A DNA stretch of 64,000 nucleotides from Elusimicrobiota bacterium (GTDB taxonomy: Bacteria; Elusimicrobiota; Elusimicrobia; JACQPE01), in contig JACPAN010000004.1 in NCBI GenBank assembly GCA_016180815.1, positions 44,358 through 108,357 on the forward strand, written 5' to 3'. The notes below the pieces were generated by a model. That model was not told where the DNA came from, made no database searches, and saw only the letters and a program-made list of their open reading frames with translations. Made by a program: the position numbers and the translations under genes. Shown in pieces: positions 1-18,527 of the stretch (the stretch's first letter is position 1; the number at the start of each line of letters is the position of its first letter).

Positions 1-521
1 TTCAACGTCTCTTTAAGCGTATCGTAAATTTCCCGGCGCATGGCCGAGAAAATAACGCCGAGCATGGTCCTGCCGGCGACCGCAATTTCCGTGGCGCGCC
101 AATCGAACAGGCAGTCCTGAAGCGGAAAAGGCACGTATTTTCTCGCTTCAATGGGGATGGCCTTGCCCCAATGCGCGCGCTCGATTTTAGGCATGGAAAA
201 GTAACGGAACACGGCGAAGGCTTCGGAAAAACAAATCCCGATTTGATCGCTTTTGATGCCCAGCTTTTTCACGGCCTCGGCGATGGCGGCCTTCATCTGG
301 GGCGCGGCCAGCCAGCGCACGATTTGCCCCGAACCCTGGGTAGTTTGGATGGGATTTAACGTCGTTCCCTGGCCGGCGAATTCGGAATCGGCGAAAATTT
401 GTGAAAACGGCTGCTCAAAACGCGCTACCAATTGATGGCCCGAGCGCGTTTTCTCCAGGGCCATCCAACGCAGGCCCTTAGTATCGATGTAGAGCGCCGG
501 ATAATAACTCGCTTTTTTCAT
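1..521 (-). CDS. pilM: Type IV pilus assembly protein PilM (actin-like ATPase fold); 5' end complete, 3' end truncated by the window edge
   Basis: Minus-strand ATG at 519-521 and an open frame to position 1 that is not in the ORF track because no stop lies inside the window. The translation MKKASYYPALYIDTKGLRWMALEK...IPIEARKYVPFPLQDCLFDW matches the PilM N-terminal region (compare P. aeruginosa [20 protein letters not shown]). It sits directly downstream of three prepilin genes. Confidence 0.7.
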   Translation of the reverse strand, partial: MKKASYYPALYIDTKGLRWMALEKTRSGHQLVARFEQPFSQIFADSEFAGQGTTLNPIQTTQGSGQIVRWLAAPQMKAAIAEAVKKLGIKSDQIGICFSEAFAVFRYFSMPKIERAHWGKAIPIEARKYVPFPLQDCLFDWRATEIAVAGRTMLGVIFSAMRREIYDTLKETL

Positions 522-545
522 TTTTCTTGCTTCAACTATTATCCA

Positions 546-932
546 TTATTGTTGAACATTTCCCCTGGCCGTCAATGTATAGCTGCTTGAAGCATAGGTA
601 AAATCCACTTGAACATTGCCGGCTCCCGTCGCATAGGTGCAATTAGCCGGCAGCGCCGGAGGCAACGGTGAGCATGTTGAATAAAGAGCCGTGCATCCAC
701 CTCCGGTCCATGTCCCCGCAACGTTGGGGTCGTAACAATGCAAATCCTCATAAGCCATGGCAATAGCCGCTTCAGCCGCGCCCCGATTATCGATGCTCTG
801 CTCCACGGTTGCGGTTCCCATAAAGCCCGACATAATCACGATCAGCATGGCCGCCGCGGTCAAGGCCATGACATTGACCATGACCAACGCCTGCAGGAGG
901 GCCACCCCGCGTGAATTCAATATTCTTCTCAT
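546..932 (-). CDS. Minor pilin or pseudopilin, PilX/GspK-like
   Basis: Internal start MRRILNSRGVALLQALVMVNVMAL carries the RGVALL..L motif typical of GspK/PilX-type prepilin leaders followed by a hydrophobic helix. The start is 1 nt after the stop of the upstream pilin gene. The longer track ORF 546..1022 overlaps the upstream gene and is rejected. Confidence 0.55.
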   Translation of the reverse strand: MRRILNSRGVALLQALVMVNVMALTAAAMLIVIMSGFMGTATVEQSIDNRGAAEAAIAMAYEDLHCYDPNVAGTWTGGGCTALYSTCSPLPPALPANCTYATGAGNVQVDFTYASSSYTLTARGNVQQ

Positions 933-933
933 A

Positions 934-1536
934 TCAACATCCCGTATCGCAACTGAACGGAACTTTCGCGGTGGTCTCAAAAAGCCGTCTGGTTTGAACG
1001 GCTCCGGCCGGCGTTCTCTCAACGATCGCGTTTAAAATAACGCGCACGTCCTTGTTCGCGCCGCTGCAGGTGAAAATATTTTCTCCTCCCTGATTATCGA
1101 TGTCCCTGGCGATCACGACTTGGGAACCCGCGCAAGCGGCCGTGGAACCCATGGCGGCGACGCTGGTGCAATAAGTGAGCTGATCTGTCGTCGTATTGTA
1201 ATGAAAACGGGCGAAGACATCGCCGTGAAGATCGGGGTTCGGATGTTTTCTGACCCAAAGCCGATGATCGACGCCCACGATGGAACACATGACAATGCCG
1301 GTCACGCCGTCAAAAACCGTGCATTCGGTGGCCGAGGTGCAGCTGGCGGAATTCAATTCGCTGACCATGACTTTCATGGCCGCCAAAACGGAAAAGGCGC
1401 CGGTGGATTTTTGCTGAAGTGTCGCCATATAGCGAACAATCGCGGTGTAGCTGACCGAAAAACCGACCAAAATATTGGTGGCGATCATCATGGCCACCAA
1501 AACTTCAATCAGCGTATATCCCTTGGTCTTGTTCAT
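934..1536 (-). CDS. Prepilin-type N-terminal cleavage/methylation-domain protein (type IV minor pilin)
   Basis: N-terminus MNKTKGYTLIEVLVAMMIA is the canonical class III signal (G-[FY]-T-L-[IL]-E) followed by a hydrophobic helix. Cys-rich C-terminal region. Confidence 0.75.
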   Translation of the reverse strand: MNKTKGYTLIEVLVAMMIATNILVGFSVSYTAIVRYMATLQQKSTGAFSVLAAMKVMVSELNSASCTSATECTVFDGVTGIVMCSIVGVDHRLWVRKHPNPDLHGDVFARFHYNTTTDQLTYCTSVAAMGSTAACAGSQVVIARDIDNQGGENIFTCSGANKDVRVILNAIVERTPAGAVQTRRLFETTAKVPFSCDTGC

Positions 1537-2033
1537 GGCGCCGGCTCCGAAAAAGTCACTCGAGCGTCCATTTGTTTTCTGGTAAAACCGCTGACCGTAA
1601 TATCATTGACCAAATAAACGGCCGTTGCGTTATATTTCGTTACCAACTCATCCGTTGACGGCAGCATATTGGTGCCGTCCGTACGAATGGCTTGATGCTG
1701 GGTGGAGCCGCCGCCGTTATTGTCTTCAAGGATATAGTGCGTGCCGCCGCTACAGGCGGGAGTGCAGGTGCAAGTATGATGAATTTCCCCGAACGTCGTG
1801 TCATCTGCGGAAAGGTGCGCCCAGGGTGTTTCAACGATATAGCTTTTAAGCTCATCCAAAATTCTTTTTTGTATGAAAGCGGCGCTGGTTTTATTAGCCG
1901 TGGTTCCGGATTGCTTGGCGGCCAGCAAAAACACGCTCATCATGCCCGCGGTGGCTGTGGACACCACCATCACGGCAATCAGCACCTCAAGAAGGGTATA
2001 GCCTCGGGAGAACCGTTTGAGCTGCTTCCTCAT
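1533..2033 (-). CDS. Prepilin-type N-terminal cleavage/methylation-domain protein (type IV minor pilin, FimT/PilV-like)
   Basis: N-terminus ...RGYTLLEVLIAVMVV. There is a 4-nt overlap with the downstream pilin gene and a 4-nt overlap with the upstream OmpA-like gene, indicating translational coupling. Confidence 0.75.
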   Translation of the reverse strand: MRKQLKRFSRGYTLLEVLIAVMVVSTATAGMMSVFLLAAKQSGTTANKTSAAFIQKRILDELKSYIVETPWAHLSADDTTFGEIHHTCTCTPACSGGTHYILEDNNGGGSTQHQAIRTDGTNMLPSTDELVTKYNATAVYLVNDITVSGFTRKQMDARVTFSEPAP

Positions 2034-3880
2034 TGCTCAACAAAGACCTCCACATAGCGCTGACCGGTTTCACCGGTGCCTGACTCGATGACCATGCGCG
2101 ATCCGGCCACGCCGAAATCCCCGCTTAAAATTTTGGCCACTTCCCGGGCGCGCTGCTCGGCCAACACCTTGGCGTTGTGCTCATCGGGAGAGGCTGCGCC
2201 GATCAACGTCAAACGCTGAGCGGGATGGAGCCGGGCGGCCTGGGCCACTTCATTCAACATGGCCACCTGCTCTTTGGAAACCTTGGTGTCGTTGGGGCCG
2301 AAGGCGATTTTAAAATTAGTCAGATTAAACGAGGTGGCCGAGGACTGCTCAGAGGCTTCCACGGGCACAGTTTTGCCGACTCCCTTGCCCGCATCCCCGA
2401 CAGGCGCGGCAACGGCGGCCGCCGCGGTCACGGCCTTGGGCGCGGCAGCTTTGGTAATAGAAGCGGCTTTAGGCTTGACTGCTTTTGCTTTTGGTTTAGG
2501 TTTGGGTTTGGCCGCCTTTGCTTGGCCGGATTTGACCGCAGGTTTAGGTTTGGGTTTGGCCGCAGACGCCGGCTTGGGTTGGCTGACGACTTTTTTGATG
2601 TCCTGGCCGACAACGTCGATCACCTTGGTGGAACGGACTTTGCCTCCGCCCACATCCAACGCCTCGGCCTCAAGCGTGTATCTGCCCGTGGGCAAAACCT
2701 CAAAATCGCCGATTGCGTCTCTCTTGCCCTCGAAATAAAACGTTTCCAAAATCGAACCCTTGCCCTCATGCGTCCAAACCGTGCTTTTATCCGGCGCGAC
2801 CAGCCTCAAACTCCAGTGCGCGATCACCTGCGGATTGCCGCTGGCGAACAATTCGATGACCATCCCCTGGCCGATGCGGGCGTCGATTTTTTCCCGGGAA
2901 ACGCCCAAGTACAGGGACGGGTATTCGCTTTTTGAGCTTTGGCGCGGAAGGTATTTGGTGAAAAAATAATGCGTATGGAAAGGGTTGGCGAATTCCTCGA
3001 ACACCAGCATCATGGTGGCCTCACGATTGCGGGACATTTGCTGCAACGCCTTGGGAAATTCGGTTTCCGGGCCGATGGAGAAACGCGGCTGGCCTTCCAA
3101 ATCCACCTCGATTCTGGCCGGCGCCATGCCGCGGCCGGTCAGGTAGCTGCTTAAAATCGTGGCCCGCTGAAGATTCGAGATGCTGGAGCGGCCCTGAGTC
3201 TGGGCCGGGTAAATGCGAATCAAATGCTTGGGGTGATAATACGCGGATTCCGCCAAAATTTTGAGCAAATCGCCGGCCTGTCTTTTAAAACTGGTTTCCT
3301 TGGCGAAGAGCAGGCTTTCCGGAATCGTGAGCGCCAAAAATTTATCCGTGCCCTTAAGCACCACGCCCACGGCGTCTTTTTTCTTAACCGCCTCGATCAG
3401 CTCCTTGCGGCGGTTATGGAGCTTGAGCTTCACGTATTCGGTCAGAGCCTCGGGCGTAGGCTTGGGCATCGGCGGTTTTTTGGCCCCCGCCGGCGCCATT
3501 TCTTCGGGTAAAGGCGGAACGGATTCGGCCGTCTTTGACGCCGGCGGCCGGGATGATTGAGCGGCCGGGGCCTCGTGAGGCGGCGCGGAAAGGCCGACCG
3601 CCGATTGAGACGGGGCCTTCGGCTGGGCGATCGGCTTGCCGGCCATGCGATAGCTGATCCTGTTGACGTATTCCTTGGCCAGCGCCACCTCTTCGGGGCT
3701 CGCCCCCATGCGGATGACTTCCATGAAATTTTCCATGGCGTCTTCCATTTGTCCGTCTTCGTAAAGATCGATGCCTTGGAACAAAAGCTCCTCGGAAGAT
3801 TTGCCGCGCCGGCGGATTTCGGCCGAGCAAACGGATGAAAATAGGAAAAAGAGGCATCCCAACAATACGCCTACTCTCAT
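2030..3880 (-). CDS. Secreted OmpA/MotB-family peptidoglycan-binding protein with an N-terminal TPR-like region and a Lys/Pro-rich repeat linker
   Basis: Signal peptide MRVGVLLGCLFFLFSSVCSA. The C-terminus LTLIGAASPDEHNAKVLAEQRAREVAKIL...RMVIESGTGET is an OmpA_C-like fold. A central KPKPKPAVKS...KPKPKPKAKAVKPK low-complexity tract is present. It is coupled to the pilin genes. Confidence 0.7.
   Translation of the reverse strand: MRVGVLLGCLFFLFSSVCSAEIRRRGKSSEELLFQGIDLYEDGQMEDAMENFMEVIRMGASPEEVALAKEYVNRISYRMAGKPIAQPKAPSQSAVGLSAPPHEAPAAQSSRPPASKTAESVPPLPEEMAPAGAKKPPMPKPTPEALTEYVKLKLHNRRKELIEAVKKKDAVGVVLKGTDKFLALTIPESLLFAKETSFKRQAGDLLKILAESAYYHPKHLIRIYPAQTQGRSSISNLQRATILSSYLTGRGMAPARIEVDLEGQPRFSIGPETEFPKALQQMSRNREATMMLVFEEFANPFHTHYFFTKYLPRQSSKSEYPSLYLGVSREKIDARIGQGMVIELFASGNPQVIAHWSLRLVAPDKSTVWTHEGKGSILETFYFEGKRDAIGDFEVLPTGRYTLEAEALDVGGGKVRSTKVIDVVGQDIKKVVSQPKPASAAKPKPKPAVKSGQAKAAKPKPKPKAKAVKPKAASITKAAAPKAVTAAAAVAAPVGDAGKGVGKTVPVEASEQSSATSFNLTNFKIAFGPNDTKVSKEQVAMLNEVAQAARLHPAQRLTLIGAASPDEHNAKVLAEQRAREVAKILSGDFGVAGSRMVIESGTGETGQRYVEVFVEQ
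2460..2590. repeat. Tandem ggtttaggtttgggtttggccgc repeat encoding the KPKPKP tract
   Basis: Two near-identical copies of ggtttaggtttgggtttggccgc lie within the coding sequence of the OmpA-like gene. Confidence 0.5.
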
Positions 3881-3975
3881 ATCGTCATCCCTTCAATAAA
3901 ACGCATGAATCCTATTTTAAGAGTAACACCAATTCGCCTAAATCGCAACGGGCTGATGGCCATAACCGGGAGGGG

Positions 3976-6324
3976 CTAACGAGGCGGCAATCCAGGGGCC
4001 CGGCCCACGGACTCGCTCCAGCGCCGGCGGATTTCCTCGGCCTTGGAACGCTCTCCCTTGCGCCAATAGTCGGCCATCAAACCCTGAAGATTGCGCGCCG
4101 TAATTTCATAGCTCGGATCCGCCTTCAACGCCTCGATAAAATACGCCACGGCTTCCTCCCCCCGGTTGGCCTGAAGCGAAAATGAGCCCAGGTTGTTCAA
4201 AATTTCTTTGTCGTTTGGAAAAAAATGCAGCGCCCGGCGCAAAACCCGCAAGGCCATGTCCCCGTAAAAACGCGTGTCTTTCAAAAAAATGGTGCTGGTC
4301 AACTGCTTGTAAACAAGGAGGTTCGCGGGGTTAATGAACAAGCTCGCCAGGTAATCGTCGAGAGCCTCCTGAGTGCGCCCCAGGCTGCCCAGCAGCACGG
4401 CGCGGTTGAAAAAAATCTCATCGTAGCCGGCATTTGATTTCAACGCTTCGGTATAGCCCCAAATCGCTTTTTCGGCGTCGCCCAAACGCGCGTACACATT
4501 GCCCAGTTCGTAATTCTTATTCACCTCTCTTGGAAAAAGCCGGTGAGACGCCAGGAGCCGGTCCAGCGCAGGGTTGAGCTTTCCTTCGCGATGCAGGACG
4601 AACCCGCGGAAATAATAAAACTCGGAAAGCCAATAACGGCTGAAACGCACGCCCATGGCAACGACGACGGCGCAGCCGAGGGCGGCCGCGGCCCAACGCG
4701 CCCACGGCCGCGAACGCGGGCTTGCTCCGGACGCGGGCATCGCGGCCGACGCAGGGATGGGGTAAAAAACCGCCAGATTGCCCAATAACCACCAGAATAA
4801 ATACCCGGGCATGGCGAAATGAAGACTGACGTTTAAGGTGTTGTCCACCATCATCCCGATCAAGCCGCCGATCAAACCGCAGGCGGCCAAGCGCCGCGGC
4901 GGCGCGATCAGCGTCGGGATATTGCGGACGGACCAAATAAAAAAGACGGCAAAAAATCCGAAAAATAGCCCGGCGCCCAGAAAACCTGTCTGTGAGAACA
5001 CTTCGATCAACTCGTTATGCCCGTTGTTGGCATGCGTGCGCAGGGGGCCGAAACGTTTGTTGTAAAGCAAATCCGCCTGATAAAAAGGATAAAAAAGTTC
5101 GAGCGTACCCCAGCCCTTGCCCAAGAGAGGACGCTCCCGGACGAATTTCCAGCATCCGGACCAAATGAGCACGCGTTGAAAAAAAGGCTGATACGGCGGC
5201 GCGGCCTGCGCTTCATCGGCCACCACTTGTCCGACCTCGAGCAACCGGCCGACGGCCGTTGGGCTGCCTTTCTGGGCGCCGGGGGGCCACAGCAGAAAAA
5301 ATAACACCGCGCCCGCGCCCAGAACCCCCACGGACTTCCATGGCCGGCGGGCATCGGCGCCGGCCGGCGCATCATCGCCGAAACGCCGCAGCAGCCAAAG
5401 AGTCACGCCCGCGCCCACGAGCGCCGCGGCCCAAGACGAACGCGTCAGCGTTGAGAGCAGGCCGGCTTCAAAAATAAAAAACAACAACCCATGAATCAGG
5501 CGGCTCCCCCACGATTTGGAAGCCCAAACGCCGACAATGAGGCTGGGCATCAGCGTGGCCAAATAAGGCGACAAAAAATTCGGGTTGCCGAACGTCGAGA
5601 TGGCGCGCGAGCCGTAGGGATTCAAATTCCTCGGCCAGATGAAATCAACGCCGAAATACTGCCCGATGCCGTAAATGCTGGCCAACGCTCCGACCGCGTA
5701 ATTGACCCAAAACAAAACAGCGGGCCCCCGGCGCTTCCACCGATAAAACAAAAAAATGAGGAAAGCCGCCCACAAAAAAAATCCGTAAGGATCCCATAAA
5801 AAACCGATGACGGACTCCGAGGCGCTCGGCGGATTCGGCAGGCGCATGCGATGGTAAAAGAGCCAGCCGCAGCCGAACAAAGCGGCGCCCGCCAGCGTCG
5901 GGTAATCCGGGTCGAGCGCGTTCTCCGGGCGGCGCTTCAATTCCATCCCCGTTAAAACGCCGGCCGCCAGCACGAAAACGGCGTTGACCAGCCAAAACAA
6001 ATTGACCCTTAAACCCTCGGCCAAAATCGACGGCCTGAAAAAATCGCCGTGCGCCCGCCACGACACCCCCCAGCTGATCCAACAAACGGCGGTGAATGCG
6101 CCCAACGGCCAAAACACCCGCCAAGGGAAGGGCTCCCCGGATGCCTTCGGCGAACGGGCGAATCCCCACAGCAACGCGACCATCAATCCCAGAACGCACA
6201 AATGAAGCAATGTAATCTGGGTTTGATACGGATTCCTGGTGAAATTGGTGAAAAACAGCAACGGGCAAACGCTGTGGATCACAAGCAGAAGAAAGGCGAA
6301 CATGAAACCCCGGCTTTTTGTCAC
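3976..6324 (-). CDS. O-antigen ligase (Wzy_C) family membrane protein fused to C-terminal TPR repeats; PglL/TfpO-like candidate O-oligosaccharyltransferase
   Basis: Polytopic membrane region with STFGNPNFLSPYLATLMP and LTLTRSSWAAAL motifs typical of the Wzy_C/WaaL family. The C-terminal ~250 aa are TPR repeats (NYELGNVYARLGDAEKAI...). GTG start at 6324 or ATG at 6302. Confidence 0.8.
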   Translation of the reverse strand: MTKSRGFMFAFLLLVIHSVCPLLFFTNFTRNPYQTQITLLHLCVLGLMVALLWGFARSPKASGEPFPWRVFWPLGAFTAVCWISWGVSWRAHGDFFRPSILAEGLRVNLFWLVNAVFVLAAGVLTGMELKRRPENALDPDYPTLAGAALFGCGWLFYHRMRLPNPPSASESVIGFLWDPYGFFLWAAFLIFLFYRWKRRGPAVLFWVNYAVGALASIYGIGQYFGVDFIWPRNLNPYGSRAISTFGNPNFLSPYLATLMPSLIVGVWASKSWGSRLIHGLLFFIFEAGLLSTLTRSSWAAALVGAGVTLWLLRRFGDDAPAGADARRPWKSVGVLGAGAVLFFLLWPPGAQKGSPTAVGRLLEVGQVVADEAQAAPPYQPFFQRVLIWSGCWKFVRERPLLGKGWGTLELFYPFYQADLLYNKRFGPLRTHANNGHNELIEVFSQTGFLGAGLFFGFFAVFFIWSVRNIPTLIAPPRRLAACGLIGGLIGMMVDNTLNVSLHFAMPGYLFWWLLGNLAVFYPIPASAAMPASGASPRSRPWARWAAAALGCAVVVAMGVRFSRYWLSEFYYFRGFVLHREGKLNPALDRLLASHRLFPREVNKNYELGNVYARLGDAEKAIWGYTEALKSNAGYDEIFFNRAVLLGSLGRTQEALDDYLASLFINPANLLVYKQLTSTIFLKDTRFYGDMALRVLRRALHFFPNDKEILNNLGSFSLQANRGEEAVAYFIEALKADPSYEITARNLQGLMADYWRKGERSKAEEIRRRWSESVGRAPGLPPR

Positions 6325-8792
6325 TATTTGCCGATGACGGACTTTTCGACGCCGTAGCCCACGCCCGGTGAGGAAACGGGCGCCATCTGGCGGATTTTCT
6401 GCAAAATGGCGTCCCTGTTGTGCATCAGCACTCCGAGCTCGCCCTGGATCTGCTGATTATTGGGATCGATTTGGCGAAGATAGCCGATATGGGTCGCCAC
6501 CGCTTTGCGGTAATCGCCGGACATCAAATAGCTTTTCGACAAATTCAGATAAGCCTCGGGATCGGGATGGGCATGGCTGGTCCAATGCGATTGATTGATC
6601 AGGGAAGCGAACGGTCCGTTGCCGGTCAAGTCCGCGCAGCGGAAAGCCAGGATTCTCTTTTTGAATTCCTGCCGCGCATCTTCGAAACGCCCGAGGCGCG
6701 TCAGAACATAGCCCATACGGTAATAATTATCGGGGAATACCGGGTCCAGATGTTGATAGAGGCGGTACCGGCGGACGGATTCCTCATAAAACTCGCGTAT
6801 TTTTTCCGGCGGCTCGTTGTTTTGAATGCCCCATTCAGCCCGTTTCAAAAACAGATTGCCGACGTGATAATGCATCTGAACATAGTTGGGGGCGAGCGTA
6901 TTGCGGATGCGCTCGTAAACCTCGATGGCGCGGTCGAAATCGCGCCGCATCACGCCGGGGGGATCGCCCCAATCGGCTCTGTTTTTGGGCTCCATATCCC
7001 AGCGGTCGTTGAACACATTGCCCAGGAAGTAATACGACATGACGAAACCCGGATTTCTCTTGATCACCTGCTGATAGTGCTTGATGGCGTCATCCCACTG
7101 ACGCCCTTTGGAATGAACGATGGCCACGTTATGATGAACGTCGCCCCTGAACCAGCCCCAGAAAAAGTATATGGGAAAGGCTAACAAAGGCGCAGCCAAA
7201 CAAGCCAGGATGCTTTTAGCGTTCCAGATCGAATGAAAATAGCTGTACGCGCTCAAACCCATAAACATGATGAAAAACGCCCAGGCCAGGAAAACCATCA
7301 ACTGATCGCCGGGGTGCGTGGAGCCGAGCATGCGCTGCTGGATGTCGAAAAACTCGACGAAAATCTTGTAGCTGACAACGGCCACGACCAAGGCTGCGGC
7401 GCCTTGAAATAGGCGTCTTAAGACACTCATGACCGGCGACGTTTCCATGATCGCGCGCACCGGAGCGACCGCGGCTTCGCGCCAGGTCCGGTCGCTCAAG
7501 GCCAACGCCACGGCCATGGCCGGCAACAGGCCGGTGAACACCCCGCTGGAAACGAAACGGATGCTGACGTCGAAATTATTGTGAATCATGGTGCCCAGCC
7601 ATCCGGACCAAACGCCCAATAAATGATAGGCCCGCACATCCACCCGGCCGTCCCGGCGCCAGCGCTGAAGCGCCCGGTAAGACAAAAGGCTCACCATGAA
7701 AATCAGCCAAACATAAACACCGAAGCCCAAAATACCCTCGTCCATGAGCACTTCGATATGTTCGTTCTCGGCGTGATCCGTTTCCGTATTATGTTTGGCT
7801 TCGATATGAAAAATCGTCGGGCGACGATAGGCGGAGTAGGCCAGGCGGAAATTGCCGATGCCGATGCCTGCGACGGGGCTGCCTGAGATGATTTCCCAAG
7901 TGGACAGCCATGTGTAGATGCGGAAAGGAATGGAGAAAGGATTCAGCCCCGGCGTGAGCATCAGAAGCGTCAGCGCGCCGGCGGCGGTGACGATAATGAC
8001 GGAGCGGATTTTCTTTCTCAAATACTCGACGAAAGGAAGAGGAATGCATAAGGAATAAAGCACCACCCATAGGGAGGTGACAATCCCCACGCCCATCCAA
8101 GCGCCCTTCGTTTCCGTAAACGCGACGTTGAACCAAGCCAACGCCAGCAGGCACCATGCCGCGAAACTTTTTTTGGCCAAGGCCCAGGATAAAACGATCG
8201 GGGTCATGATCACGATGTAGTCGCCGAAGAAATTTGGATTGCCGAATGTGGAGAAAATGCGCTTTTGAAACGCCTGGCGCCAAATAAAAATATCCAGCCC
8301 AAAAACGGGCATGGACGCGGAATTCGGCGGAAAAAAACGCGAGTCTAGAAATTGGATGAAGCCGTAAAACGTCGAAACGAAAAGAGCCAGGAGCAAAAAC
8401 TTTAGGATCCGCTCCACGGCATCGAGGCTGCGGATTTTATCGAACACGATCAAGGCCGCGCTCATGTAGAGCAGGCGCCGCACCATGTCGTCGATATTCC
8501 AAAGCTTGAAATGGGAAACGACCAGGTAGGAAAACGCGCCTGATAAAAGCAGGGCCGCGAAGGGCGCATAAACGGGCAAATATTCCGCGCTCAAGCTCAA
8601 GCGCCGCTCTTCCAGCTTCTCCATCAGCCAAAGGCCCAAGAGCGCGGTGATGCCCATTTGGGCGACGGTGATTTTAACCTGGGCCGAGTCGTAGGTGCGC
8701 AGATAAAACGTCACCACAACCGCGAAATACACCAACGGCAGGCCCCAGAGAATGCTTCTGGTGGTGATTCGGGATAAAGCGGTTGCCGGCAT
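6324..8792 (-). CDS. O-antigen ligase (Wzy_C) family membrane protein fused to C-terminal TPR repeats (paralog of the downstream gene)
   Basis: Motif STFGNPNFFGDYIVIMTPIV and multiple TM helices, then TPR repeats (YYFLGNVFNDRWD..., YHVGNLFLKRAE...). Its stop overlaps the start of the next ligase gene. Confidence 0.8.
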   Translation of the reverse strand: MPATALSRITTRSILWGLPLVYFAVVVTFYLRTYDSAQVKITVAQMGITALLGLWLMEKLEERRLSLSAEYLPVYAPFAALLLSGAFSYLVVSHFKLWNIDDMVRRLLYMSAALIVFDKIRSLDAVERILKFLLLALFVSTFYGFIQFLDSRFFPPNSASMPVFGLDIFIWRQAFQKRIFSTFGNPNFFGDYIVIMTPIVLSWALAKKSFAAWCLLALAWFNVAFTETKGAWMGVGIVTSLWVVLYSLCIPLPFVEYLRKKIRSVIIVTAAGALTLLMLTPGLNPFSIPFRIYTWLSTWEIISGSPVAGIGIGNFRLAYSAYRRPTIFHIEAKHNTETDHAENEHIEVLMDEGILGFGVYVWLIFMVSLLSYRALQRWRRDGRVDVRAYHLLGVWSGWLGTMIHNNFDVSIRFVSSGVFTGLLPAMAVALALSDRTWREAAVAPVRAIMETSPVMSVLRRLFQGAAALVVAVVSYKIFVEFFDIQQRMLGSTHPGDQLMVFLAWAFFIMFMGLSAYSYFHSIWNAKSILACLAAPLLAFPIYFFWGWFRGDVHHNVAIVHSKGRQWDDAIKHYQQVIKRNPGFVMSYYFLGNVFNDRWDMEPKNRADWGDPPGVMRRDFDRAIEVYERIRNTLAPNYVQMHYHVGNLFLKRAEWGIQNNEPPEKIREFYEESVRRYRLYQHLDPVFPDNYYRMGYVLTRLGRFEDARQEFKKRILAFRCADLTGNGPFASLINQSHWTSHAHPDPEAYLNLSKSYLMSGDYRKAVATHIGYLRQIDPNNQQIQGELGVLMHNRDAILQKIRQMAPVSSPGVGYGVEKSVIGK

Positions 8793-8832
8793 GGTCAGTT
8801 CGATTTCCGCCGGCCGAAGATTTGAAAAACCA

Positions 8833-8904
8833 AGCCGGAGGCGGGAATCGAACCCGCGGCCAACGGTTTACGAAACCGCTGCTCTACCGCTGAGCTACCC
8901 CGGC
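8833..8904 (-). tRNA. tRNA-Thr (anticodon CGU)
   Basis: The reverse complement GCCGGGGTAGCTCAGCGGTAGAGCAGCGGTTTCGTAAACCGTTGGCCGCGGGTTCGATTCCCGCCTCCGGCT folds as a cloverleaf with a 7-bp acceptor stem, D arm, anticodon loop TTCGTAA and a T arm with the GGTTCGATTCC box. No CCA is encoded. Confidence 0.85.
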
Positions 8905-8966
8905 GCGACATCAATTCCCCCCGCATTCGACTCGTTATTTTGACTAATTTTAGAGCGAATAACCAC
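8866..8966. repeat. Direct repeat copy 1 (~100 bp): 5' half of tRNA-Thr plus ~60 bp of its upstream region
   Basis: ggtttacgaaaccgctgctctaccgctgagctaccccggcgcgacatcaattccccccgcattcgactcgttattttgactaattttagagcgaataacca recurs at 13296-13395 with 2 mismatches and a 1-nt indel. Confidence 0.85.
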
Positions 8967-9285
8967 GCCACGGGAAGTTTTCAGCGCCGGAAACAAATGC
9001 CCGGACGAAGCCGTCCGGGCATCCGTCGATTTATTGGGCTTAGCTAAAAATCAAATCACCAAAACCTGAAATAAATTGACTTTTTATTAGCCCAAAGATC
9101 TTTCCTATGAGCCGACGTCACCCCTGGCGAATCATGTGGAATCTTTATCCTAAAAACTGTCAATATAGTCTTGAGTATATTTTTCCTATGTTTTCTAAAC
9201 ACAGATCGTTGCTGTCAACAAGCTTAACCAAACGCAAAATAGCAACTCAATTCCTTCGGGGAAATTTTAGGATGCGGGAACCCAG

Positions 9286-11001
9286 ATGACCTGCATATCT
9301 TTCCCGTTCTTTTCCAAGCACAAAGCAGCGGTCGCCGCCGTGGGTCTTTTTGTGGTTTCGGTAGGCGTCTTTTGGCCATCCCTCTCTTTCGAATTTTTGA
9401 GCGTCGATGACTCTGTTCAGATCACGAAGAATCCACACGTACGCAGCGGATTAACTAAGGACAGCGTACGGTGGGCATTCCAACCTGATTCTTTCTTTTC
9501 CAAGATAGAACCATACACTTGGAGGATACCGCTTGTTTTTCTTTCTCATATGCTGGATGTAGAAATTTATGGACTCAATCCCGAGGGGCACCGCCTGACC
9601 AATGTCCTTCTCCACGCAGCTAGTGCTGCATTTTTCTTTCTTTTTCTTTTTCGAATTACCGGACGGTTGGATTGCAGCCTTTTGGCTGCGGCGCTCTTTA
9701 GCGCTCACCCCATGAAGGTTGAATCAGTCGTTTGGCTCGCCGAAAGAAAAGATGTCTTGAGCGGATTTTTTGTCGGACTTACCTTGCTTGCTTACGCCAA
9801 TTACATATCAAAGCCGGGATGGAAACTTTATGCGGCTATTTTGATCTTTTATACGCTCGGCCTCATGTCCAAAGCTTCGATCGTGGCCCTCCCACTAGGA
9901 ATGATGGCTTTTGATTTTTGGCCGCTCAAACGTTTTCGATGGGGCGACAGATCGACGATCCTGAAATCTTTTCTAGAAAAAATACCGCTTTTTATTTTGT
10001 CGTTGATTGCCGGTGTCATTACGATGGCAGGATCCACTTTTATCGTCACAAACATAAAACCATTCAATGCATCGCATATTATTGAAATTTCTTTAAATCG
10101 TTGTTTCGATTATTTAACAAGAACTATTTGGCCGGTCAATTTAGCGTTTTTATATCCCTTGACGCCTGACTCGTTGTCTCTTTGGAGAAGCATCCAGGCA
10201 TTTATCTCTGTTGTAGGATTGACTGCGATATTTTCAGCGCAATACGTCAAAAGACCCTACTTGATTGCCGGTTGGCTTTGGTTTCTATTCAATTTGATTC
10301 CCTCCTTCGGAAACATTCCAGTTTTCCATAATCACTATACCTACTTATCCAGCATAGGTATTTTTATCGCAATCTCCTGGTTCTTAAACGAAATAATGTC
10401 CAGGCAGCGATTTTGGACATACTGGATTGCGGGTGGGCTAATTTTTATCTTGAGTGTTTCCGGAACTTTTTATCAGATGCAGTTTTGGCGTAACAGCGAG
10501 ACTCTTTATCAGCGTGCCTTGAAAGTTACGGGGCCTAATGTTCCTGTTCATGTAGCTCTGGGTAATTTATTGAGCGACCAAGGCAGACTCGATGAAGCGG
10601 AACGGCACTATCTTGAAGCGCTTAAAATTCAACCGAATCATCCATTGACTCACCTAGGACTGGCAAAGGTGTTTGGGTTCAAAAATATGTGGGAAAAGGC
10701 GGCTTTCTTCAGCAAGACCGCCCTAAACCTAAATAAAAATCTCCCCATGGCACACTGGTATCTGGGAACCTACTTGTATGACCGGGGTGAGGTCAAACAG
10801 GCTATTGCCCACTACCAACAGGCAATTGAGCTTAAACCCGATTACTGGGAAGCGTGGAACAATTTAGGGGTGGCCATGCAGGAGCAGGGAAAATGGAATG
10901 AGGCCGTCTCTTGCTACCGCGAAGCCTTAAAGCAAAATCCCCATTCAAGCGAAGCCAAGCAAAATTTGATACGCGCCCTTTCTACTCTTCGATTGCAGTG
11001 A
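9286..11001 (+). CDS. GT-C fold glycosyltransferase (PMT/TMTC/DUF1736-like) with C-terminal TPR repeats; lower GC than the neighbourhood
   Basis: About 11 TM helices with an early loop motif LSVDDS. The C-terminal TPRs include ALGNLLSDQGRLDEAERHYLEALKIQP, AHWYLGTYLYDRGEVKQAIAHYQQAIELKPDY and AWNNLGVAMQEQGKWNEAVSCYREALKQNP. Codon usage is AT-richer than the flanking genes. Confidence 0.7.
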   Translation: MTCISFPFFSKHKAAVAAVGLFVVSVGVFWPSLSFEFLSVDDSVQITKNPHVRSGLTKDSVRWAFQPDSFFSKIEPYTWRIPLVFLSHMLDVEIYGLNPEGHRLTNVLLHAASAAFFFLFLFRITGRLDCSLLAAALFSAHPMKVESVVWLAERKDVLSGFFVGLTLLAYANYISKPGWKLYAAILIFYTLGLMSKASIVALPLGMMAFDFWPLKRFRWGDRSTILKSFLEKIPLFILSLIAGVITMAGSTFIVTNIKPFNASHIIEISLNRCFDYLTRTIWPVNLAFLYPLTPDSLSLWRSIQAFISVVGLTAIFSAQYVKRPYLIAGWLWFLFNLIPSFGNIPVFHNHYTYLSSIGIFIAISWFLNEIMSRQRFWTYWIAGGLIFILSVSGTFYQMQFWRNSETLYQRALKVTGPNVPVHVALGNLLSDQGRLDEAERHYLEALKIQPNHPLTHLGLAKVFGFKNMWEKAAFFSKTALNLNKNLPMAHWYLGTYLYDRGEVKQAIAHYQQAIELKPDYWEAWNNLGVAMQEQGKWNEAVSCYREALKQNPHSSEAKQNLIRALSTLRLQ

Positions 11002-11050
11002 CAGATTAATCGGCAAAATCCGCCAAGGACAAGGCCTACCTAAATAAGGG

Positions 11051-13261
11051 CTACTTAAGATAACCCAGGGCTTTTAACGCGAGGGTTCTGTTGTGCGACA
11101 CGATGGGATCGGCAATACCTAGTTTTGAAACTTGTTCAAAGGCATCAAGAGCCAGCCTGGGCTGATCATTTTTTAAATAGGCAATACCAAGATTGGTAAG
11201 CGCCCTGTAATTGCCCGGATCAAGTTGACCGGCTAAATAGTTCAACCGAACAGCTTCGGCATATTTCCTTTCATCTAAACAAAGAACGCCAAGATTCATC
11301 AGTGCTTGCGCATAAAATCCTTTAACCTGAGGCGTCACGGCCATTCGTTGAGTCAGACCTGGATGGCGGTCGGTTTCCATGGCAGGGATTAAATAATTCA
11401 ATGCTTCGCGGGGCCGGTTTTGATCTAGTAGAACCATCGCGGCAACATATTTGGCCCACGTCGTGCTCCCGTCCAAGGCCAAGGCTCGCTGAGCTTCTCT
11501 AAGAGCATGACGCTTTTGACCGTAAAGATAATAATAGTGAGCCAACATTTCATGAACTTTTGCGTTGTCAGTGATGTCGTAAATTAAAATAGAGTGCCCG
11601 ACTCTATCGATAGGCTGAAACGTTTTGAGCCAATAAAAAGGATCGGCGCCAAGTTGAGGTGCGAAATAAACCCCCTGGAGCTTCGTGACGCTGATGGCTA
11701 AAATTTCTTGTTTGGGGTTTGGGGTGTTGATATGGGAATGCAGTCCGCGGAATTCCGACATGAAATCCTGGAACTCAAAGCCGATTGATTTTGGAGGCAC
11801 AGGCCCAAAATAGATGAGCACGACCTCGGCGTCAGGATACTGTTCGATATAGCGGCGCAAATACGGCAAATCCTGGCCCCAATCGATGTTTGAGTCCACT
11901 AAATAATGCCAACCTTTTTTAGCCCCGCCGAACATTTCATTGAAATATTCCAAATGGTGAGGACCGATGCTTACTGCCGAAAGAATATGCCATGGCAATA
12001 GAAATAAGGCCGCGAATTTAAGCCTTGGGCTTTGCGTAATCTTAGCGCACAATACATACAACAGCGGATAAATAGGCAAGATGTGCCGGTGGCCTATTTT
12101 AAGCGGGGTAAATATGCTGGCTGCAAGCAGAATTACGGCCGGCACAAAAAGAAAAAAAACGGTGCGCCTACGGAGGCGATCCTGAAATTCCAGCCAAAGC
12201 CCGATGGTTCCAAGCAGCAACGCTGGGATCGTGGTTTTGGCAATAAATGTAAAAAAGAAATAGTGCCAAAATCCGGTTGAAGAATACTGACCGGCCATAT
12301 AACTCATCTGCCCACGGCTGATATACCGATAAGCACCCAAGACACCCTTGAAGTATTCATCAACATGGATGAAGCGATAGAAAAGAAGGATGGTTATGAT
12401 CAGCGAGAACGCTGCCAGTGGAATATATCGAAACAGCCTTGGTCCGGGTTTTTCGCTGCTAAAGCGCATTGAACACCAAACGGCGCCGATCAAGGCCGGC
12501 AACAGAATAATAGCGCTGTGCTTGGATAGTAGGGCCAGGGCCGCGCAAACGCCCAAACCTATGGCTCTAACGGCGACAGGTTTCTCGTAATAAAGCCAGC
12601 AACTATACGTCGCCATGAAAAAAAAGGCTGTGATCAGAAGATCCTCGGTGGCTAAAGACGAGTGGGCCAAAATGTTTGGACAAAATGAATACAAAGCCAG
12701 AGCAAGCAATCCTCCCTTAATGCCATAGAGCCGTTTGGCCCATGAAAAAACTCCCAATGCCAACAAAAGCGAAACCGCCAGAACCATCAAACGGCTGACC
12801 AAGAGTATTGTTGAGGTCGAAATAACATTGTTGAAAATAAAATCTTCCACGAAAGGAATGGCTTTGGTCCATTCGCTGGGCTCGGGCGATCTGGCATAAA
12901 TAGCATCCTTCCAGAGTTGCGTATCCGTTCTCATGCGCACATTTGTGAAAATCAGGGGCAAGCTAACCAAGGACATAGGCAAAATGCCCTTATCTTTTCT
13001 TAGCCTGAAATCTCCTGTATTCCAAAGACTATAGCCTGCGGTAATAAAATAAGGTTCGTCATAAGTGGCCGAATGATTAAGAATCGCCCGTCCACCCTGA
13101 AACACCAAACACAACAAACATAGCGGCAACAATATCCAAACTGCCCAACGGTGAAGATTTGTTTTTTTTATTGACGTCGGCTCTTGAGAGGTTAACTTTT
13201 GTTTATTGGTCAAGGTGGGAAGAAGGATTAAATCGATGATCGCTAAATCGTCGGAGGGCAA
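11051..13261 (-). CDS. GT-C fold glycosyltransferase (ArnT/PMT family-like, YDEP loop motif) with C-terminal TPR repeats; lower GC
   Basis: N-terminal polytopic domain with HSATYDEPYFITAGYSLW (a DE-loop typical of GT39/GT83). C-terminal TPRs (AHYYYLYGQKRHALREAQRALALDG..., ALMNLGVLCLDERKYAEAVRLNYLAGQLDPGNYRALTNLGIAYL). Confidence 0.7.
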   Translation of the reverse strand: MPSDDLAIIDLILLPTLTNKQKLTSQEPTSIKKTNLHRWAVWILLPLCLLCLVFQGGRAILNHSATYDEPYFITAGYSLWNTGDFRLRKDKGILPMSLVSLPLIFTNVRMRTDTQLWKDAIYARSPEPSEWTKAIPFVEDFIFNNVISTSTILLVSRLMVLAVSLLLALGVFSWAKRLYGIKGGLLALALYSFCPNILAHSSLATEDLLITAFFFMATYSCWLYYEKPVAVRAIGLGVCAALALLSKHSAIILLPALIGAVWCSMRFSSEKPGPRLFRYIPLAAFSLIITILLFYRFIHVDEYFKGVLGAYRYISRGQMSYMAGQYSSTGFWHYFFFTFIAKTTIPALLLGTIGLWLEFQDRLRRRTVFFLFVPAVILLAASIFTPLKIGHRHILPIYPLLYVLCAKITQSPRLKFAALFLLPWHILSAVSIGPHHLEYFNEMFGGAKKGWHYLVDSNIDWGQDLPYLRRYIEQYPDAEVVLIYFGPVPPKSIGFEFQDFMSEFRGLHSHINTPNPKQEILAISVTKLQGVYFAPQLGADPFYWLKTFQPIDRVGHSILIYDITDNAKVHEMLAHYYYLYGQKRHALREAQRALALDGSTTWAKYVAAMVLLDQNRPREALNYLIPAMETDRHPGLTQRMAVTPQVKGFYAQALMNLGVLCLDERKYAEAVRLNYLAGQLDPGNYRALTNLGIAYLKNDQPRLALDAFEQVSKLGIADPIVSHNRTLALKALGYLK

Positions 13262-13295
13262 ACATCAGCAAAGTTGGGGGGCGTGGTTTAATTCT

Positions 13296-13395
13296 GGTTA
13301 CGAAACCGCTACTCTACCGCTGAGCTACCCCGGCGCGACATCAATTCCCCCCGCATTCGACCCGTTATTTTGACTAATTTTAGAGCGAATAACCA
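13296..13395. repeat. Direct repeat copy 2, containing a degenerate tRNA-Thr 5'-half fragment (pseudo-tRNA, 13296-13333)
   Basis: ggttacgaaaccgctactctaccgctgagctaccccggcgcgacatcaattccccccgcattcgacccgttattttgactaattttagagcgaataacca. The anticodon-stem and D-stem positions are mutated relative to the intact tRNA. Confidence 0.8.
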
Positions 13396-13425
13396 GGAAA
13401 TGCCATGGGATTTACGCCGGACGCG

Positions 13426-14757
13426 CTAAATCAGAATTTCTGCTTGTTGGGAACGCTCGCGCAATAAGGCGGCGCGTTTTTTATTGACATCGGGGTTGTA
13501 ACAGCCGCCCCGGTTGCCCAAAGCCAGCGCCATGAACACGCAGCGATTGCAGCTTTCGCAAATCGACGCCCGCCGGTCACCGGTCAACAGCCGGGCCGGC
13601 AAGTCGGGTTCCGCGTACAACGGCCGGGCCATGCCCACCATATCAGCCTGCCCCGAACCTAGAATGGACTCAATATCCTCCAAAGACCGGATGCCGCCGA
13701 CGGCAAATGCCGGAATGGACACGGTTCGTTTGATCGCCGCAAAAATGTCGCGATTCCAAACGCTTTGAAATGGTTCGCGCCGGGCGGCGTAAGCCGTCGT
13801 CCAACGATAGAGGTGAAAGCGCCACCAAGAACCGGAGGCTTCTCGCATTTGCCGTGCAATGGTTCCGTTTTCGTAGACGCCGGCCGGATAATCGCCGCGC
13901 GTCACTTTTGCGGTCGGGAACGCGTCCGCGGTTGTGGGCGTAATGGCGGCGAAACCCCATTGCTCGCAAAGGCGCGCCATGGCGAGGCCGTCTTCAAGCG
14001 TGATGCGCCTCTTCGCATGCTGGGTGTCCATCATGGGCAGCTTGGTTAAAACCGGGTAATCAGCTCCTGCGTGCCGGGCGATGGATTCCCGAATCACCTT
14101 AAGAATACGGGTCCGATTTTCCACCGTTCCTCCGAACTCGTCCGTACGGCGATTAAAATACGGGGTCAAAAATTGATGCAGCAGCTTGCCGTTGCCCGCG
14201 GCCAATTGAACGCCGTCTAAACCCGCTTCCCTGGCTAAGGCCGCTGAGCGTCCGAATTTTTCAGCCAACTCGTAAACTTCCGCCGTTGTTAACGCATGAA
14301 CAGGCCTGATCATTAAGGAAAAAGGCAAAGGCAGAGGGCTGGGGCCGATCAACGGCTTTTTTCTGCGGCTTTTGTAAGCCGTATGCCAGCCTTCGAGAGC
14401 AAAATACCCGCCATGACCCAACTGCATCACGATTTTGGCGCCGTGCTCATGAACCCGGGCCGTTAAACGGGCCAAGGGAAGCACGTTCTCCCGTAAGTGC
14501 ACCGAGATCATGCCCGGGGCGGCATGACCCTCTTCATCAATACAGGAGGAGCCCATAATGATTAAACCGATACCGGCCTTGGCATTGGGGATGAAATGCT
14601 CCTCATACGCTCGAATAAAATCCTTCTCGCCTAGATAGCCTTCGAGCACCGGCGCGCGGTAAAGCCGGTTGCGAACCATCATGCTGCCGATGCGCAATGA
14701 ATCGGATAATCGGATTCCTTGCGGCCCGGGGAGAATGTCCGTTCCTGTTTTAATCAT
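13426..14757 (-). CDS. Old Yellow Enzyme family NADH:flavin oxidoreductase (FMN-dependent ene-reductase or 2,4-dienoyl-CoA reductase-like)
   Basis: TIM-barrel OYE motifs GAKIVMQLGHGG and ...AGNGKLLHQFL..., with a C-terminal Cys cluster CESCNRC. Approximately 440 aa. Confidence 0.8.
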   Translation of the reverse strand: MIKTGTDILPGPQGIRLSDSLRIGSMMVRNRLYRAPVLEGYLGEKDFIRAYEEHFIPNAKAGIGLIIMGSSCIDEEGHAAPGMISVHLRENVLPLARLTARVHEHGAKIVMQLGHGGYFALEGWHTAYKSRRKKPLIGPSPLPLPFSLMIRPVHALTTAEVYELAEKFGRSAALAREAGLDGVQLAAGNGKLLHQFLTPYFNRRTDEFGGTVENRTRILKVIRESIARHAGADYPVLTKLPMMDTQHAKRRITLEDGLAMARLCEQWGFAAITPTTADAFPTAKVTRGDYPAGVYENGTIARQMREASGSWWRFHLYRWTTAYAARREPFQSVWNRDIFAAIKRTVSIPAFAVGGIRSLEDIESILGSGQADMVGMARPLYAEPDLPARLLTGDRRASICESCNRCVFMALALGNRGGCYNPDVNKKRAALLRERSQQAEILI

Positions 14758-14868
14758 TGTCGAACTCCTTCGCTTTTGCCTCGAATTTCTTTGTTAAATT
14801 GTTGTTCTAAACAAACATTTAACATAAAATAATCCGTATGTCAATACGCGTAAAAAATAAAAAACTGG

Positions 14869-14897
14869 TTGACTTTAAACAAAAGTGGGTGTATATA
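14869..14897 (+). promoter_or_regulatory. Candidate sigma70-type promoter: -35 TTGACT at 14869-14874, 17-bp spacer, -10 TATATA at 14892-14897
   Basis: Consensus-like hexamers with 17-nt spacing in the AT-rich divergent intergenic region. The track ORF start at 14869 is the TTG of the -35 element and is therefore unlikely to be the real start. Confidence 0.45.
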
Positions 14898-14913
14898 TGA
14901 ATTTAGGATGTCC

Positions 14914-15774
14914 ATGATTAAATATTCTCTGCTTCTTTGGCTTACAATCGGCCTGTCTGCCCAAAACGGATATTGCGATGAACCGCCGGAATCCCCGGCT
15001 TTATCTGCGGAAAGCGAAGCCAACGGCTATCTTGACGAACGGGCATCCTGGCGGCAATGGACAGCGAGCGAATGGCGCTTTTGCGAAGAAAATTCCCGGC
15101 CCCAACACCCTTGGACCAAAGATGAAATAACCGTTGATTCTGCGTTTGTCGATGATCATGGTTTGCCGTGGCGGCGCCTGCAATACCGCAGCGCGCTTCA
15201 TGGCGCGCCGGACTCCTATCTTTGCCTCAATGGCCGGTGGGTTTGGCTGGGCTCAGTCACCCTGCGCAGCGCAACCTTGACTGCGGACGGCAAAGAAATA
15301 GTTCTGATGCTGGAAGACCCGCGCCAAATCATCAACGACTATTGGCGGATCAGGGCTGCGGACATCGAACGCTATGATGCTTCCGACCGCAGGATTTATA
15401 TCGCCGAGATCGCTTGGGTTTATGCGATGGTTGATTTACGCCGAACCGATCCGCCGATTCATAACATCAGTCTTTACCTGAATTCGGAAACAGGGCTAAA
15501 CGGAGACGCCGTGGCCGTCGCTTTATGGCGGATGAGTGAGGAAGGGTTCCTCAGACGATCGCCTTTGCGCAACATGAATTTAAGAATAACCGCAGCCAAC
15601 TGGGTATCGGAACGTGCGCCCGCCGGCGTCAAACTCTTCACCCGGGTCTATTTATCCCCTGCCGAACGTTACGAGGGCTGGGCGTCCACGGCCGTAGAAA
15701 TTTACGAACAAAACAGCATCGATCCTTTGGCTCAGATAACCTGGCGCCAATTGAAACGCAGGGCCCGCCGGTAA
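14914..15774 (+). CDS. Hypothetical secreted protein
   Basis: ATG at 14914 lies 5 nt downstream of AGGA. Signal-peptide-like N-terminus MIKYSLLLWLTIGLSAQ. No recognisable domain. Confidence 0.5.
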   Translation: MIKYSLLLWLTIGLSAQNGYCDEPPESPALSAESEANGYLDERASWRQWTASEWRFCEENSRPQHPWTKDEITVDSAFVDDHGLPWRRLQYRSALHGAPDSYLCLNGRWVWLGSVTLRSATLTADGKEIVLMLEDPRQIINDYWRIRAADIERYDASDRRIYIAEIAWVYAMVDLRRTDPPIHNISLYLNSETGLNGDAVAVALWRMSEEGFLRRSPLRNMNLRITAANWVSERAPAGVKLFTRVYLSPAERYEGWASTAVEIYEQNSIDPLAQITWRQLKRRARR

Positions 15775-15787
15775 AAACCGGCGCCGC

Positions 15788-18509: not shown

Positions 18510-18527
18510 TTAAAAAATATTTTAGAC

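Follow-up and report, generated by a model that had tools for sequence, protein, structure and literature searches.

Tandem Wzy_C-TPR proteins at the head of a conserved type IV pilus-like operon in Elusimicrobia, and their possible role in machine-linked glycosylation

The window analysed here, a 64,000-nucleotide stretch of an Elusimicrobiota genome (GenBank assembly GCA_016180815.1, contig JACPAN010000004.1, positions 44,358 to 108,357 of the forward strand), carries near its start two tandem genes, A and B, whose products combine a membrane domain of the Wzy_C superfamily with C-terminal tetratricopeptide repeats (TPRs). Both genes are transcribed ahead of a set of type IV pilus genes, and what their products do there is the subject of this report. 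Proteins were assigned by scanning them with Pfam and NCBIfam profiles, and tRNA genes were located with ARAGORN. In order of transcription, the features at this end of the window are as follows, with Pfam scores unless stated otherwise.

8833-8904, minus strand: tRNA-Thr (anticodon CGT), found by ARAGORN, 40 nucleotides upstream of A and on the same strand
6324-8792, minus strand: A, 822 residues, Wzy_C (37.1 bits against a cut-off of 31.7) with C-terminal TPRs
3976-6324, minus strand: B, 782 residues, Wzy_C (47.7 bits against a cut-off of 31.7) with C-terminal TPRs
2030-3880, minus strand: C, 616 residues, secreted OmpA-like protein (OmpA at residues 527-605, 40.4 bits against 27.2)
1533-2033, minus strand: D, minor pilin resembling GspI/PilV (N_methyl 23.8 bits; weak NCBIfam matches to PilV and GspI; motif RG/YTLLE)
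934-1536, minus strand: E, minor pilin (N_methyl 26.7 bits; prepilin motif KG/YTLIE)
546-932, minus strand: F, 128 residues, minor pseudopilin resembling GspK/PilX (NCBIfam GspK N-terminus, E = 1.2e-4, far under the cut-off; motif RG/VALLQ, without Glu5)
1-521, minus strand: PilM-like protein, N-terminal 173 residues, truncated by the window edge (PilM_2 26.9 bits, at the cut-off; matches to the Amuc_1101 family and TIGR01175)

These genes are real as the original prediction for this DNA had described them, although it placed the ligase-like genes after the pil genes; in transcription order (tRNA-Thr, A, B, C, D, E, F, PilM, all on the minus strand) they precede them. The genes are tightly packed. 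C and D overlap by 4 nucleotides, as do D and E, and the junction of A and B depends on the start chosen for B: a GTG at 6324 overlaps the stop codon of A, giving an overlap of 1 nucleotide, and an ATG 21 nucleotides downstream, which NCBI uses to call a protein of 775 residues, leaves a gap of ~20 nucleotides. Over positions 1-13500, promoter-like sites were as frequent as expected from shuffled sequence and terminator-like sites only modestly more so, with no clear terminator inside the operon. The GC content at third codon positions (GC3) of A, B, and C is 0.69-0.71, similar to that of housekeeping genes in the window, and by this measure all three are native genes. Identical proteins deposited from an Elusimicrobia metagenome-assembled genome (MAG) carry generic names: "tetratricopeptide repeat protein," "O-antigen ligase family protein," and "OmpA family protein."

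Conservation of the operon across the phylum

Scanning a single genome from each species yielded 456 loci, of which the best 80 were annotated by BLAST against reference proteins. Gene-order counts were restricted to loci with enough downstream sequence, i.e., at least 3 kb for B, at least 7.5 kb for A-B-C-PilM, and at least 9.9 kb for the secretin. B lay directly after A at 51 of 65 species-level loci, the order A-B-C-PilM was present at 43 of 55, and 35 of 51 had the secretin gene in addition. The original prediction had proposed checking whether Wzy_C-TPR genes and pil genes keep their synteny in other genomes and had singled out the OmpA-like protein as an atypical member of a pilus operon; the synteny extends across the phylum, and C is a constant part of the conserved cluster.

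Detailed neighborhoods with precomputed Pfam labels were compared for five genomes spanning 39-74% identity (L002-L005 and L008 are among the labeled loci examined). Four of them show two successive Wzy_C-TPR genes, an OmpA-like gene, a long PilM gene, and, to differing degrees, genes for PilO, a secretin, and an MshEN/T2SSE ATPase beyond it; the contig of the fifth (L006) ends just past B. The PilM proteins of the relatives are long (520-566 residues). Behind their genes come those for PilO, a PilP-like protein, the secretin, and a PilB-type ATPase, an arrangement found in L002-L005, L008, and at least 35 further loci. Genes are closely spaced in the labeled neighborhoods of the relatives too. 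The hallmarks of a machine resembling a type IV pilus or type II secretion system (T2SS) are divided between the window, which supplies the N-terminus of PilM and prepilins D and E, and its syntenic relatives, which carry the PilM_2, PilO, and Secretin domains and the MshEN plus T2SSE combination. Positions 1-8904 of the minus strand are best read as the 5' part of a conserved Elusimicrobia operon for type IV pilus/T2SS-like machinery. A variant order was seen in L070, L079, and L083, where a PilB-type ATPase gene comes after A and B, and the OmpA-like gene, with PilM behind it, follows only after a further 1-3 kb; in L083 a weak match resembling a secretin lies ~9 kb upstream of A as well. 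In L008, a relative at 67% identity, a FliG_M match (21701-22445) follows PilM, PilO, and a gene of unknown type, at the place where other genomes have the secretin.

The upstream limit of the operon is usually conserved as well. A tRNA-Thr(CGT) gene stands directly 5' of the A orthologue at 8 of 11 loci checked, including one from a MAG of E. minutum (L003, 9857-9929; L004, 9856-9928; L006, 9799-9870; L008, 9809-9881; L015, 6304-6375; L016, 3311-3382; L017, 1641-1714; L022, 9798-9870). The tRNA gene marks a conserved 5' boundary, and this tRNA-operon junction has been kept to phylum depth. Since the threonine codon ACG is not enriched in the genes of the operon, codon demand does not explain why the tRNA gene is conserved there.

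Only the window's own clade has two or three pilin genes separating the OmpA-like gene from PilM, and orthologues of F occupy the same position in L012, L013, and L015. From their sequences, D, E, and F look like a minor pilin set of the GspI/J/K or PilV/W/X type. The orthologues of C share a single plan consisting of a signal peptide, a short helical hairpin, a linker rich in Ser, Thr, Pro, and Ala, a degenerate OmpA-like region, a beta-rich domain, a second linker rich in Lys, Pro, and Ala, and a C-terminal OmpA domain. In the C protein of the window, the first linker is rich in Ser, Pro, and Ala and the second in Lys and Pro (KP). Its inner segments gave no Pfam match, and the OmpA signature "N..L..RA..L..YL..G" at residues ~170-262 was recognized by eye only. 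The most economical reading of C would be a peptidoglycan-anchored strut of the machine, functionally comparable to TsaP or FimV, from which it differs in using OmpA-like rather than LysM domains. More speculatively, its low-complexity linkers could conceivably make it a glycan acceptor.

Family, active-site residues, and topology of A and B

A and B form full-length orthologue groups across Elusimicrobia, with ~37-41% identity at phylum depth, and their named database matches all come from Elusimicrobia genomes or from entries given as unclassified "bacterium." Both exceed the Wzy_C gathering score of 31.7 bits (A, 37.1; B, 47.7), and the best NCBIfam match of their membrane domains, to the IctB family, fell far under its cut-off. 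The two proteins align to each other with an hhalign probability of 100% but are only 27% identical, which points to an old duplication; they are ancient paralogues within the WaaL/Wzy_C superfamily. Mean column identity across the phylum is 57% for A and 46% for B.

Three residues of WaaL, R215, R288, and H338, are reported to be important for its function and are conserved in PglL (PMC3643930). In a profile alignment, G435-H436-N437-E-L-I-E of B falls on L337-H338-N339-E-I-I-E of E. coli WaaL. R295 of B, in "LTRSSW," tentatively corresponds to R215 of E. coli WaaL ("TQTR215"), a correspondence whose underlying A-to-WaaL alignment is weak (hhalign probability 0.14%, E = 0.42). R384 of B pairs with R291 of A, and its equivalence to R288 is taken from the alignment of A with B. 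B also fits the ligase motif H[NSQ]x9Gxx[GTY]. A differs at two of the three positions, having Lys229 and Glu342 where WaaL has Arg215 and His338, and of the triad it keeps only R291. These features are fixed. R295, R384, H431, and H436 are invariant in 54 B sequences, and K229, R291, H329, H340, E342, E344, and E347 are invariant in 79 A sequences, including those from 14 loci, described below, at which A occurs alone. Given the invariant loop residues and the mean column identity of 57%, A is a strongly constrained variant and not a decaying copy.

AlphaFold2 (AF2) models were of good overall quality by their own scores, with a predicted local distance difference test score (pLDDT) of 89.6 and a predicted TM-score (pTM) of 0.91 for B; the corresponding values of A are 83.5 and 0.82. 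When the model of B was searched with Foldseek, the sole match in the PDB other than TPR proteins was the WaaL of Cupriavidus metallidurans (PDB 7TPG; E = 3.5e-5, TM-score 0.49 on the target). Searches of PDB sequences with A and B returned TPR proteins only and nothing for the membrane domains.

Transmembrane topology was derived by counting helices in the AF2 models. WaaL has a periplasmic catalytic loop, three helices after it, and a cytoplasmic C-terminus. In the models, the stretch from the catalytic loop to the TPR domain contains four helices in the case of B and six in that of A, and the one or three extra helices would bring the TPR domain to the periplasmic side. Both TPR domains are thus predicted to be periplasmic, on the strength of helix counting and homology to WaaL. 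Many residues of the TPR domains are invariant in each protein.

Compared with the characterized WaaL proteins of E. coli and C. metallidurans, B belongs to the same family, has a model that matches 7TPG, and retains putative equivalents of R215, R288, and H338 together with the ligase motif. The differences are the extra transmembrane helices (one in B, three in A), a predicted periplasmic TPR domain of 220-270 residues, the Lys and Glu of A, the location of both genes in a pilus machinery operon instead of the LPS (lipopolysaccharide) core or O-antigen locus in which the gene for WaaL, the enzyme that joins O-antigen to lipid A-core, usually lies, and a conservation much better than is usual for WaaL.

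Candidate functions of the A/B pair

Sequence alone cannot distinguish O-glycosylation enzymes from LPS ligases in this superfamily, and most of the known examples are from Proteobacteria. Protein glycosylation linked to the pilus machine is the function we favor for A and B, tentatively and with a probability of roughly 45%. Enzymes of the WaaL/Wzy_C family lie in the inner membrane and would act here, as elsewhere, by moving undecaprenyl-pyrophosphate-linked glycans at the periplasmic face. B, with its apparently complete Arg/Arg/His site, would join a lipid-linked glycan to a protein held by its TPR domain; this acceptor might be a pilin, or a protein of the machinery or envelope such as C or the secretin. 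A, in which Lys and Glu replace the Arg and His, could be another transferase with a chemistry of its own or a partner acting like a polymerase, and C would anchor the machine to peptidoglycan. Of this picture, the synteny, domain content, residue conservation, fold, and helix counts were established directly, whereas the periplasmic position of the TPRs, the transfer of glycan, the protein nature of the acceptor, and the cooperation of A with B are inferred. The proposal draws on the architecture of WsfB, the precedent of TfpW, the highly conserved TPR domains, and the phylum-wide synteny with machinery genes.

WsfB of Paenibacillus alvei, a predicted O-oligosaccharyltransferase of the S-layer, likewise has a Wzy_C domain and C-terminal TPRs, the latter proposed to mediate protein-protein contact (PMC2943079). 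By its published description, on which our comparison is based, it shares with A and B a Wzy_C membrane domain followed by TPRs, which in A and B lie on the side of the catalytic loop according to the helix counts, and A lies in a glycan cluster in 14 species. WsfB is, however, the product of a single gene in a Gram-positive S-layer cluster, whereas A and B are a pair of paralogues in the pilus operon of a diderm. TfpW, the arabinosyltransferase of group IV pilins in Pseudomonas aeruginosa, glycosylates pilin and is encoded next to pilA; it is a glycosyltransferase of the GT-C type with a periplasmic TPR domain. The membrane domains of A and B are of the WaaL type and not of the ArnT/PMT-like GT-C type found in TfpW and in the TMTC/PMT enzymes.

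Several observations weigh against a role in protein glycosylation. The conserved neighbors of A and B are machinery genes and not pilin genes, and the sole major-pilin-like gene of the window (41186-41671) lies 32 kb from the operon. Genes for donor synthesis, i.e., an initiating transferase, a flippase, or a soluble glycosyltransferase, were not found among the window's open reading frames (ORFs) that were scanned. The presence of Wzy_C does not by itself tell a protein O-oligosaccharyltransferase from a polymerase or an LPS ligase (PMC3643930), and the cell may have no O-antigen ligase other than A or B. The top 50 structural matches of A, filled by TPR proteins, included no WaaL fold, and our search of the literature found no glycoprotein data for Elusimicrobia. 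The features that define PglL are also wanting. PglL/TfpO (PilO) enzymes are Wzy_C-family proteins acting at the periplasmic face, with genes often linked to those of type IV pili (PMC3643930), and are recognized by the motifs PglL_A and PglL_B (Wzy_C_2) flanking Wzy_C (Schulz et al., 2013; PMC3643930). Neither A nor B matched PglL_A, and Wzy_C_2 was hit only by B, at 11.4 bits (E = 0.32) against a cut-off of 28.5. TfpO genes stand beside the major pilin gene, unlike A and B, which are two tandem paralogues with PilM, PilO, and the secretin as neighbors. By the defining features tested, A and B belong to the Wzy_C superfamily without being of the PglL or TfpO type. The analogy with PglL/TfpO drawn by the original prediction is weak, given the missing motifs, the machinery neighbors, and the restriction of minor pilins at this position to the window's clade.

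A further point against a function tied to the pilus is that A occurs with neither B nor pil genes nearby in 14 of 65 species. At one such locus (L064, 5655-18556), A is preceded by a family 2 glycosyltransferase (GT2), a methyltransferase, a protein of unknown type of 586 residues, and a PMT_2 GT-C gene, and is followed by genes for a SIS protein (GmhA-like), a HAD protein (GmhB-like), a radical SAM protein, a nucleotidyltransferase (HddC-like), a GHMP kinase (HddA-like), and a second GT2. Most of the other 13 loci, among them L049, L062, L067-L069, L071, L075, L084, and L089, carry subsets of these genes, whose annotation indicates a nucleotide-heptose glycan locus. The lone-A loci fall in one clade of Elusimicrobia. 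Because A keeps company with heptose and GT2 glycan genes in these 14 species, it is probably a real glycan-handling enzyme; the same context may leave room for a role in LPS or another surface glycan.

Indeed, both proteins could be ordinary enzymes of LPS or surface polysaccharide, B being WaaL and A a Wzy-like polymerase or a second ligase, with their place in the operon reflecting co-regulation of the envelope and their TPRs binding Wzz-like or export partners or the polysaccharide itself. We regard this as rather unlikely. Membership of the Wzy_C family, the WaaL triad and fold of B, and the lack of PglL motifs in both proteins agree with such a role, and the window shows no further candidate for WaaL. 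The heptose/GT2/PMT_2 setting of A in 14 species is one in which polymerases and ligases are commonly found. The original prediction had named LPS-locus synteny elsewhere as evidence that would count against it, and this was found in part, since A does lie in a glycan-biosynthesis locus in 14 of 65 species; yet PilM/PilO/secretin synteny holds in ~78% of species. WaaL and Wzy are usually poorly conserved even inside a genus, which is hard to reconcile with the mean column identities of A and B across a phylum. Characterized WaaL proteins, moreover, lack a TPR domain (that of E. coli has 419 residues), and the Arg and His on which WaaL is considered to depend are missing from A.

It is less probable still that A and B are mainly parts of the pilus assembly or its scaffold. 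Under this explanation their periplasmic TPRs would replace the pilotins PilF, PilW, Tgl, or TadD in assembling or stabilizing the secretin, the WaaL-derived domain would serve as an anchor, and catalysis would be secondary or, in A, lost. As with PilF/PilW/Tgl/TadD and TsaP/FimV, predicted periplasmic TPRs and a peptidoglycan-binding protein are here encoded with secretin and alignment-complex genes. A and B lie among machinery genes and not pilin genes, the clusters examined show no separate gene for a TPR pilotin, and A is without the canonical Arg and His. Their TPRs, however, are fused to polytopic, enzyme-like domains and are not lipoproteins as in the TPR pilotins. There are weak matches at the TPR level to models of the PilW, Tgl, and TadD type, and the Joint Genome Institute (JGI) labels some orthologues "PilF/TadD/O-antigen ligase," but these pilotin matches are generic and far under the cut-offs. 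The invariance of the catalytic-loop residues in A and B argues for retained chemistry, and a scaffold part would not be expected in the 14 glycan loci where A occurs without pil genes.

Returning to glycosylation, a bolder form of the favored function can be imagined, although we think it improbable. A and B would together constitute a heteromeric glycosylation station embedded in the machine and unique to the Elusimicrobia pilus, in which B is a His-dependent ligase and A a new, Lys/Glu-type enzyme that either polymerizes the glycan or uses another lipid-linked donor. Through their periplasmic TPR arms the two enzymes would attach to the OmpA-like strut, the alignment complex, or the secretin, and glycosylation of pilins or of the machine itself would take place as assembly proceeds. 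More radically, the secretin system may export a glycoconjugate made by A and B.

Wzy_C-TPR proteins are already widely annotated, and the idea of an O-oligosaccharyltransferase bearing TPRs is not new; for the phylum-wide pairing of the paralogues, their fixed place behind tRNA-Thr at the head of a pilus machinery operon, and the invariant Lys and Glu of A, we found no description in the searchable literature. For a phylum that has been little studied and has a species in culture, Elusimicrobium minutum, the pair offers a testable entry to the assembly of pili and the glycobiology of the envelope. It also bears on the role of TPR fusions in the WaaL superfamily, which are widely annotated but uncharacterized.

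H and I, a separate islet beyond the tRNA

Two further genes for membrane proteins with TPRs lie on the far side of the tRNA gene, and a prepilin gene is found farther into the window.

9286-11001, plus strand: H, 571 residues, multi-pass membrane protein with strong C-terminal TPR matches (PMT_2 17 bits against 26.1)
11051-13261, minus strand: I, GT-C protein of the GT39/ArnT family (PMT_2 41.6 bits against 26.1) with C-terminal TPRs
41186-41671, minus strand: major-pilin-like prepilin, 161 residues (ORF found by motif scan; N_methyl 38.1 bits)

The description of H and I as two GT-C-TPR proteins fits I, which scores above the PMT_2 cut-off and has TPRs, better than H, which lies on the plus strand and whose PMT_2 match is weak (17 bits, E = 0.0074), with no match to DUF1736. 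Acidic motifs in the first loop were noted by eye in both ("SVDDS" in H, "YDEPY" in I), and H is probably GT-C/TMTC-like, an assignment that is weak. The NCBI call for I, of 627 residues, drops the first predicted transmembrane helix and the "YDEPY" motif of the longer ORF. Both proteins share with TfpW and the TMTC/PMT enzymes the plan of a membrane domain followed by a large C-terminal TPR region, which in those protein-modifying enzymes is periplasmic or lumenal. Since no significant similarity was detected between H and I, they are not paralogues.

H and the operon are divergent, H and I convergent, and with this layout neither H nor I can be co-transcribed with the operon. No homologue of either was found within 10 kb on either side of A at any of the 80 annotated loci (80/80), nor upstream of A in the relatives at 74% and 67% identity. 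In the 67% relative (L008) the order is Zip, FBPase_3, tRNA-Thr, A; the window keeps Zip (19782-20600) and FBPase_3 (18583-19737), and its positions 8905-18582 form, by comparison, an insertion of ~9.7 kb that holds a TetR gene, genes for proteins of 749 and 301 residues without Pfam match, a flavoprotein of the old yellow enzyme (OYE) family, I, and H. The GC content falls to 0.43-0.49 over 9001-13200, compared with 0.52-0.60 on the flanks, and GC3 is 0.49-0.50 in these two genes (H, 0.486; I, 0.498) against 0.58-0.71 in the other genes measured. I has few homologues among Elusimicrobia (identities of 86%, 45%, and 34%); the others come from Anaerolineales, Deltaproteobacteria, Omnitrophota, Binatia, and Acidobacteria. 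The 45% homologue, from a sister MAG, lies apart from A-B on another contig, with NHL- and Big-domain genes around it. H and I therefore represent an unrelated islet, probably acquired horizontally. A classical tRNA-targeted island was considered and rejected, as the islet is situated 5' of the tRNA gene and no integrase was seen.

The original prediction had joined A, B, H, and I in a single glycosylation supercluster serving the pilus, an arrangement that, despite the adjacency of the four genes, the demonstration by TfpW that a GT-C enzyme with periplasmic TPRs can glycosylate pilin, and the PMT_2-type GT-C genes beside A in the 14 glycan-locus species (which are not BLAST-level homologues of H or I), is most improbable and already largely refuted by comparative genomics: H and I are absent from the 80 loci and from the 74% and 67% relatives, sit with low GC3 in a lineage-specific insertion, are oriented such that they cannot be co-transcribed with the operon, and, in the case of I, are scattered over several phyla and unlinked to A-B in the sister MAG. 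H and I are thus not conserved neighbors of the pilus genes, and the four enzymes came to be adjacent by chance, through an insertion that is recent and probably horizontal. The outcome cautions against inferring function from the fact that genes are neighbors in one genome.

Two other features of the window may be noted. The 161-residue pilin (motif RG/FTLVELMIVVAIIG..., i.e., RG/FTLVELM...) is encoded alone beside a major facilitator superfamily (MFS) transporter gene and is a candidate pilus subunit. A second low-GC stretch (26001-28000, GC 0.44) adjoins a tRNA-Glu gene (28065-28139); this region, 26001-28139, includes an ORF of 266 residues without Pfam match and may be another acquired islet.

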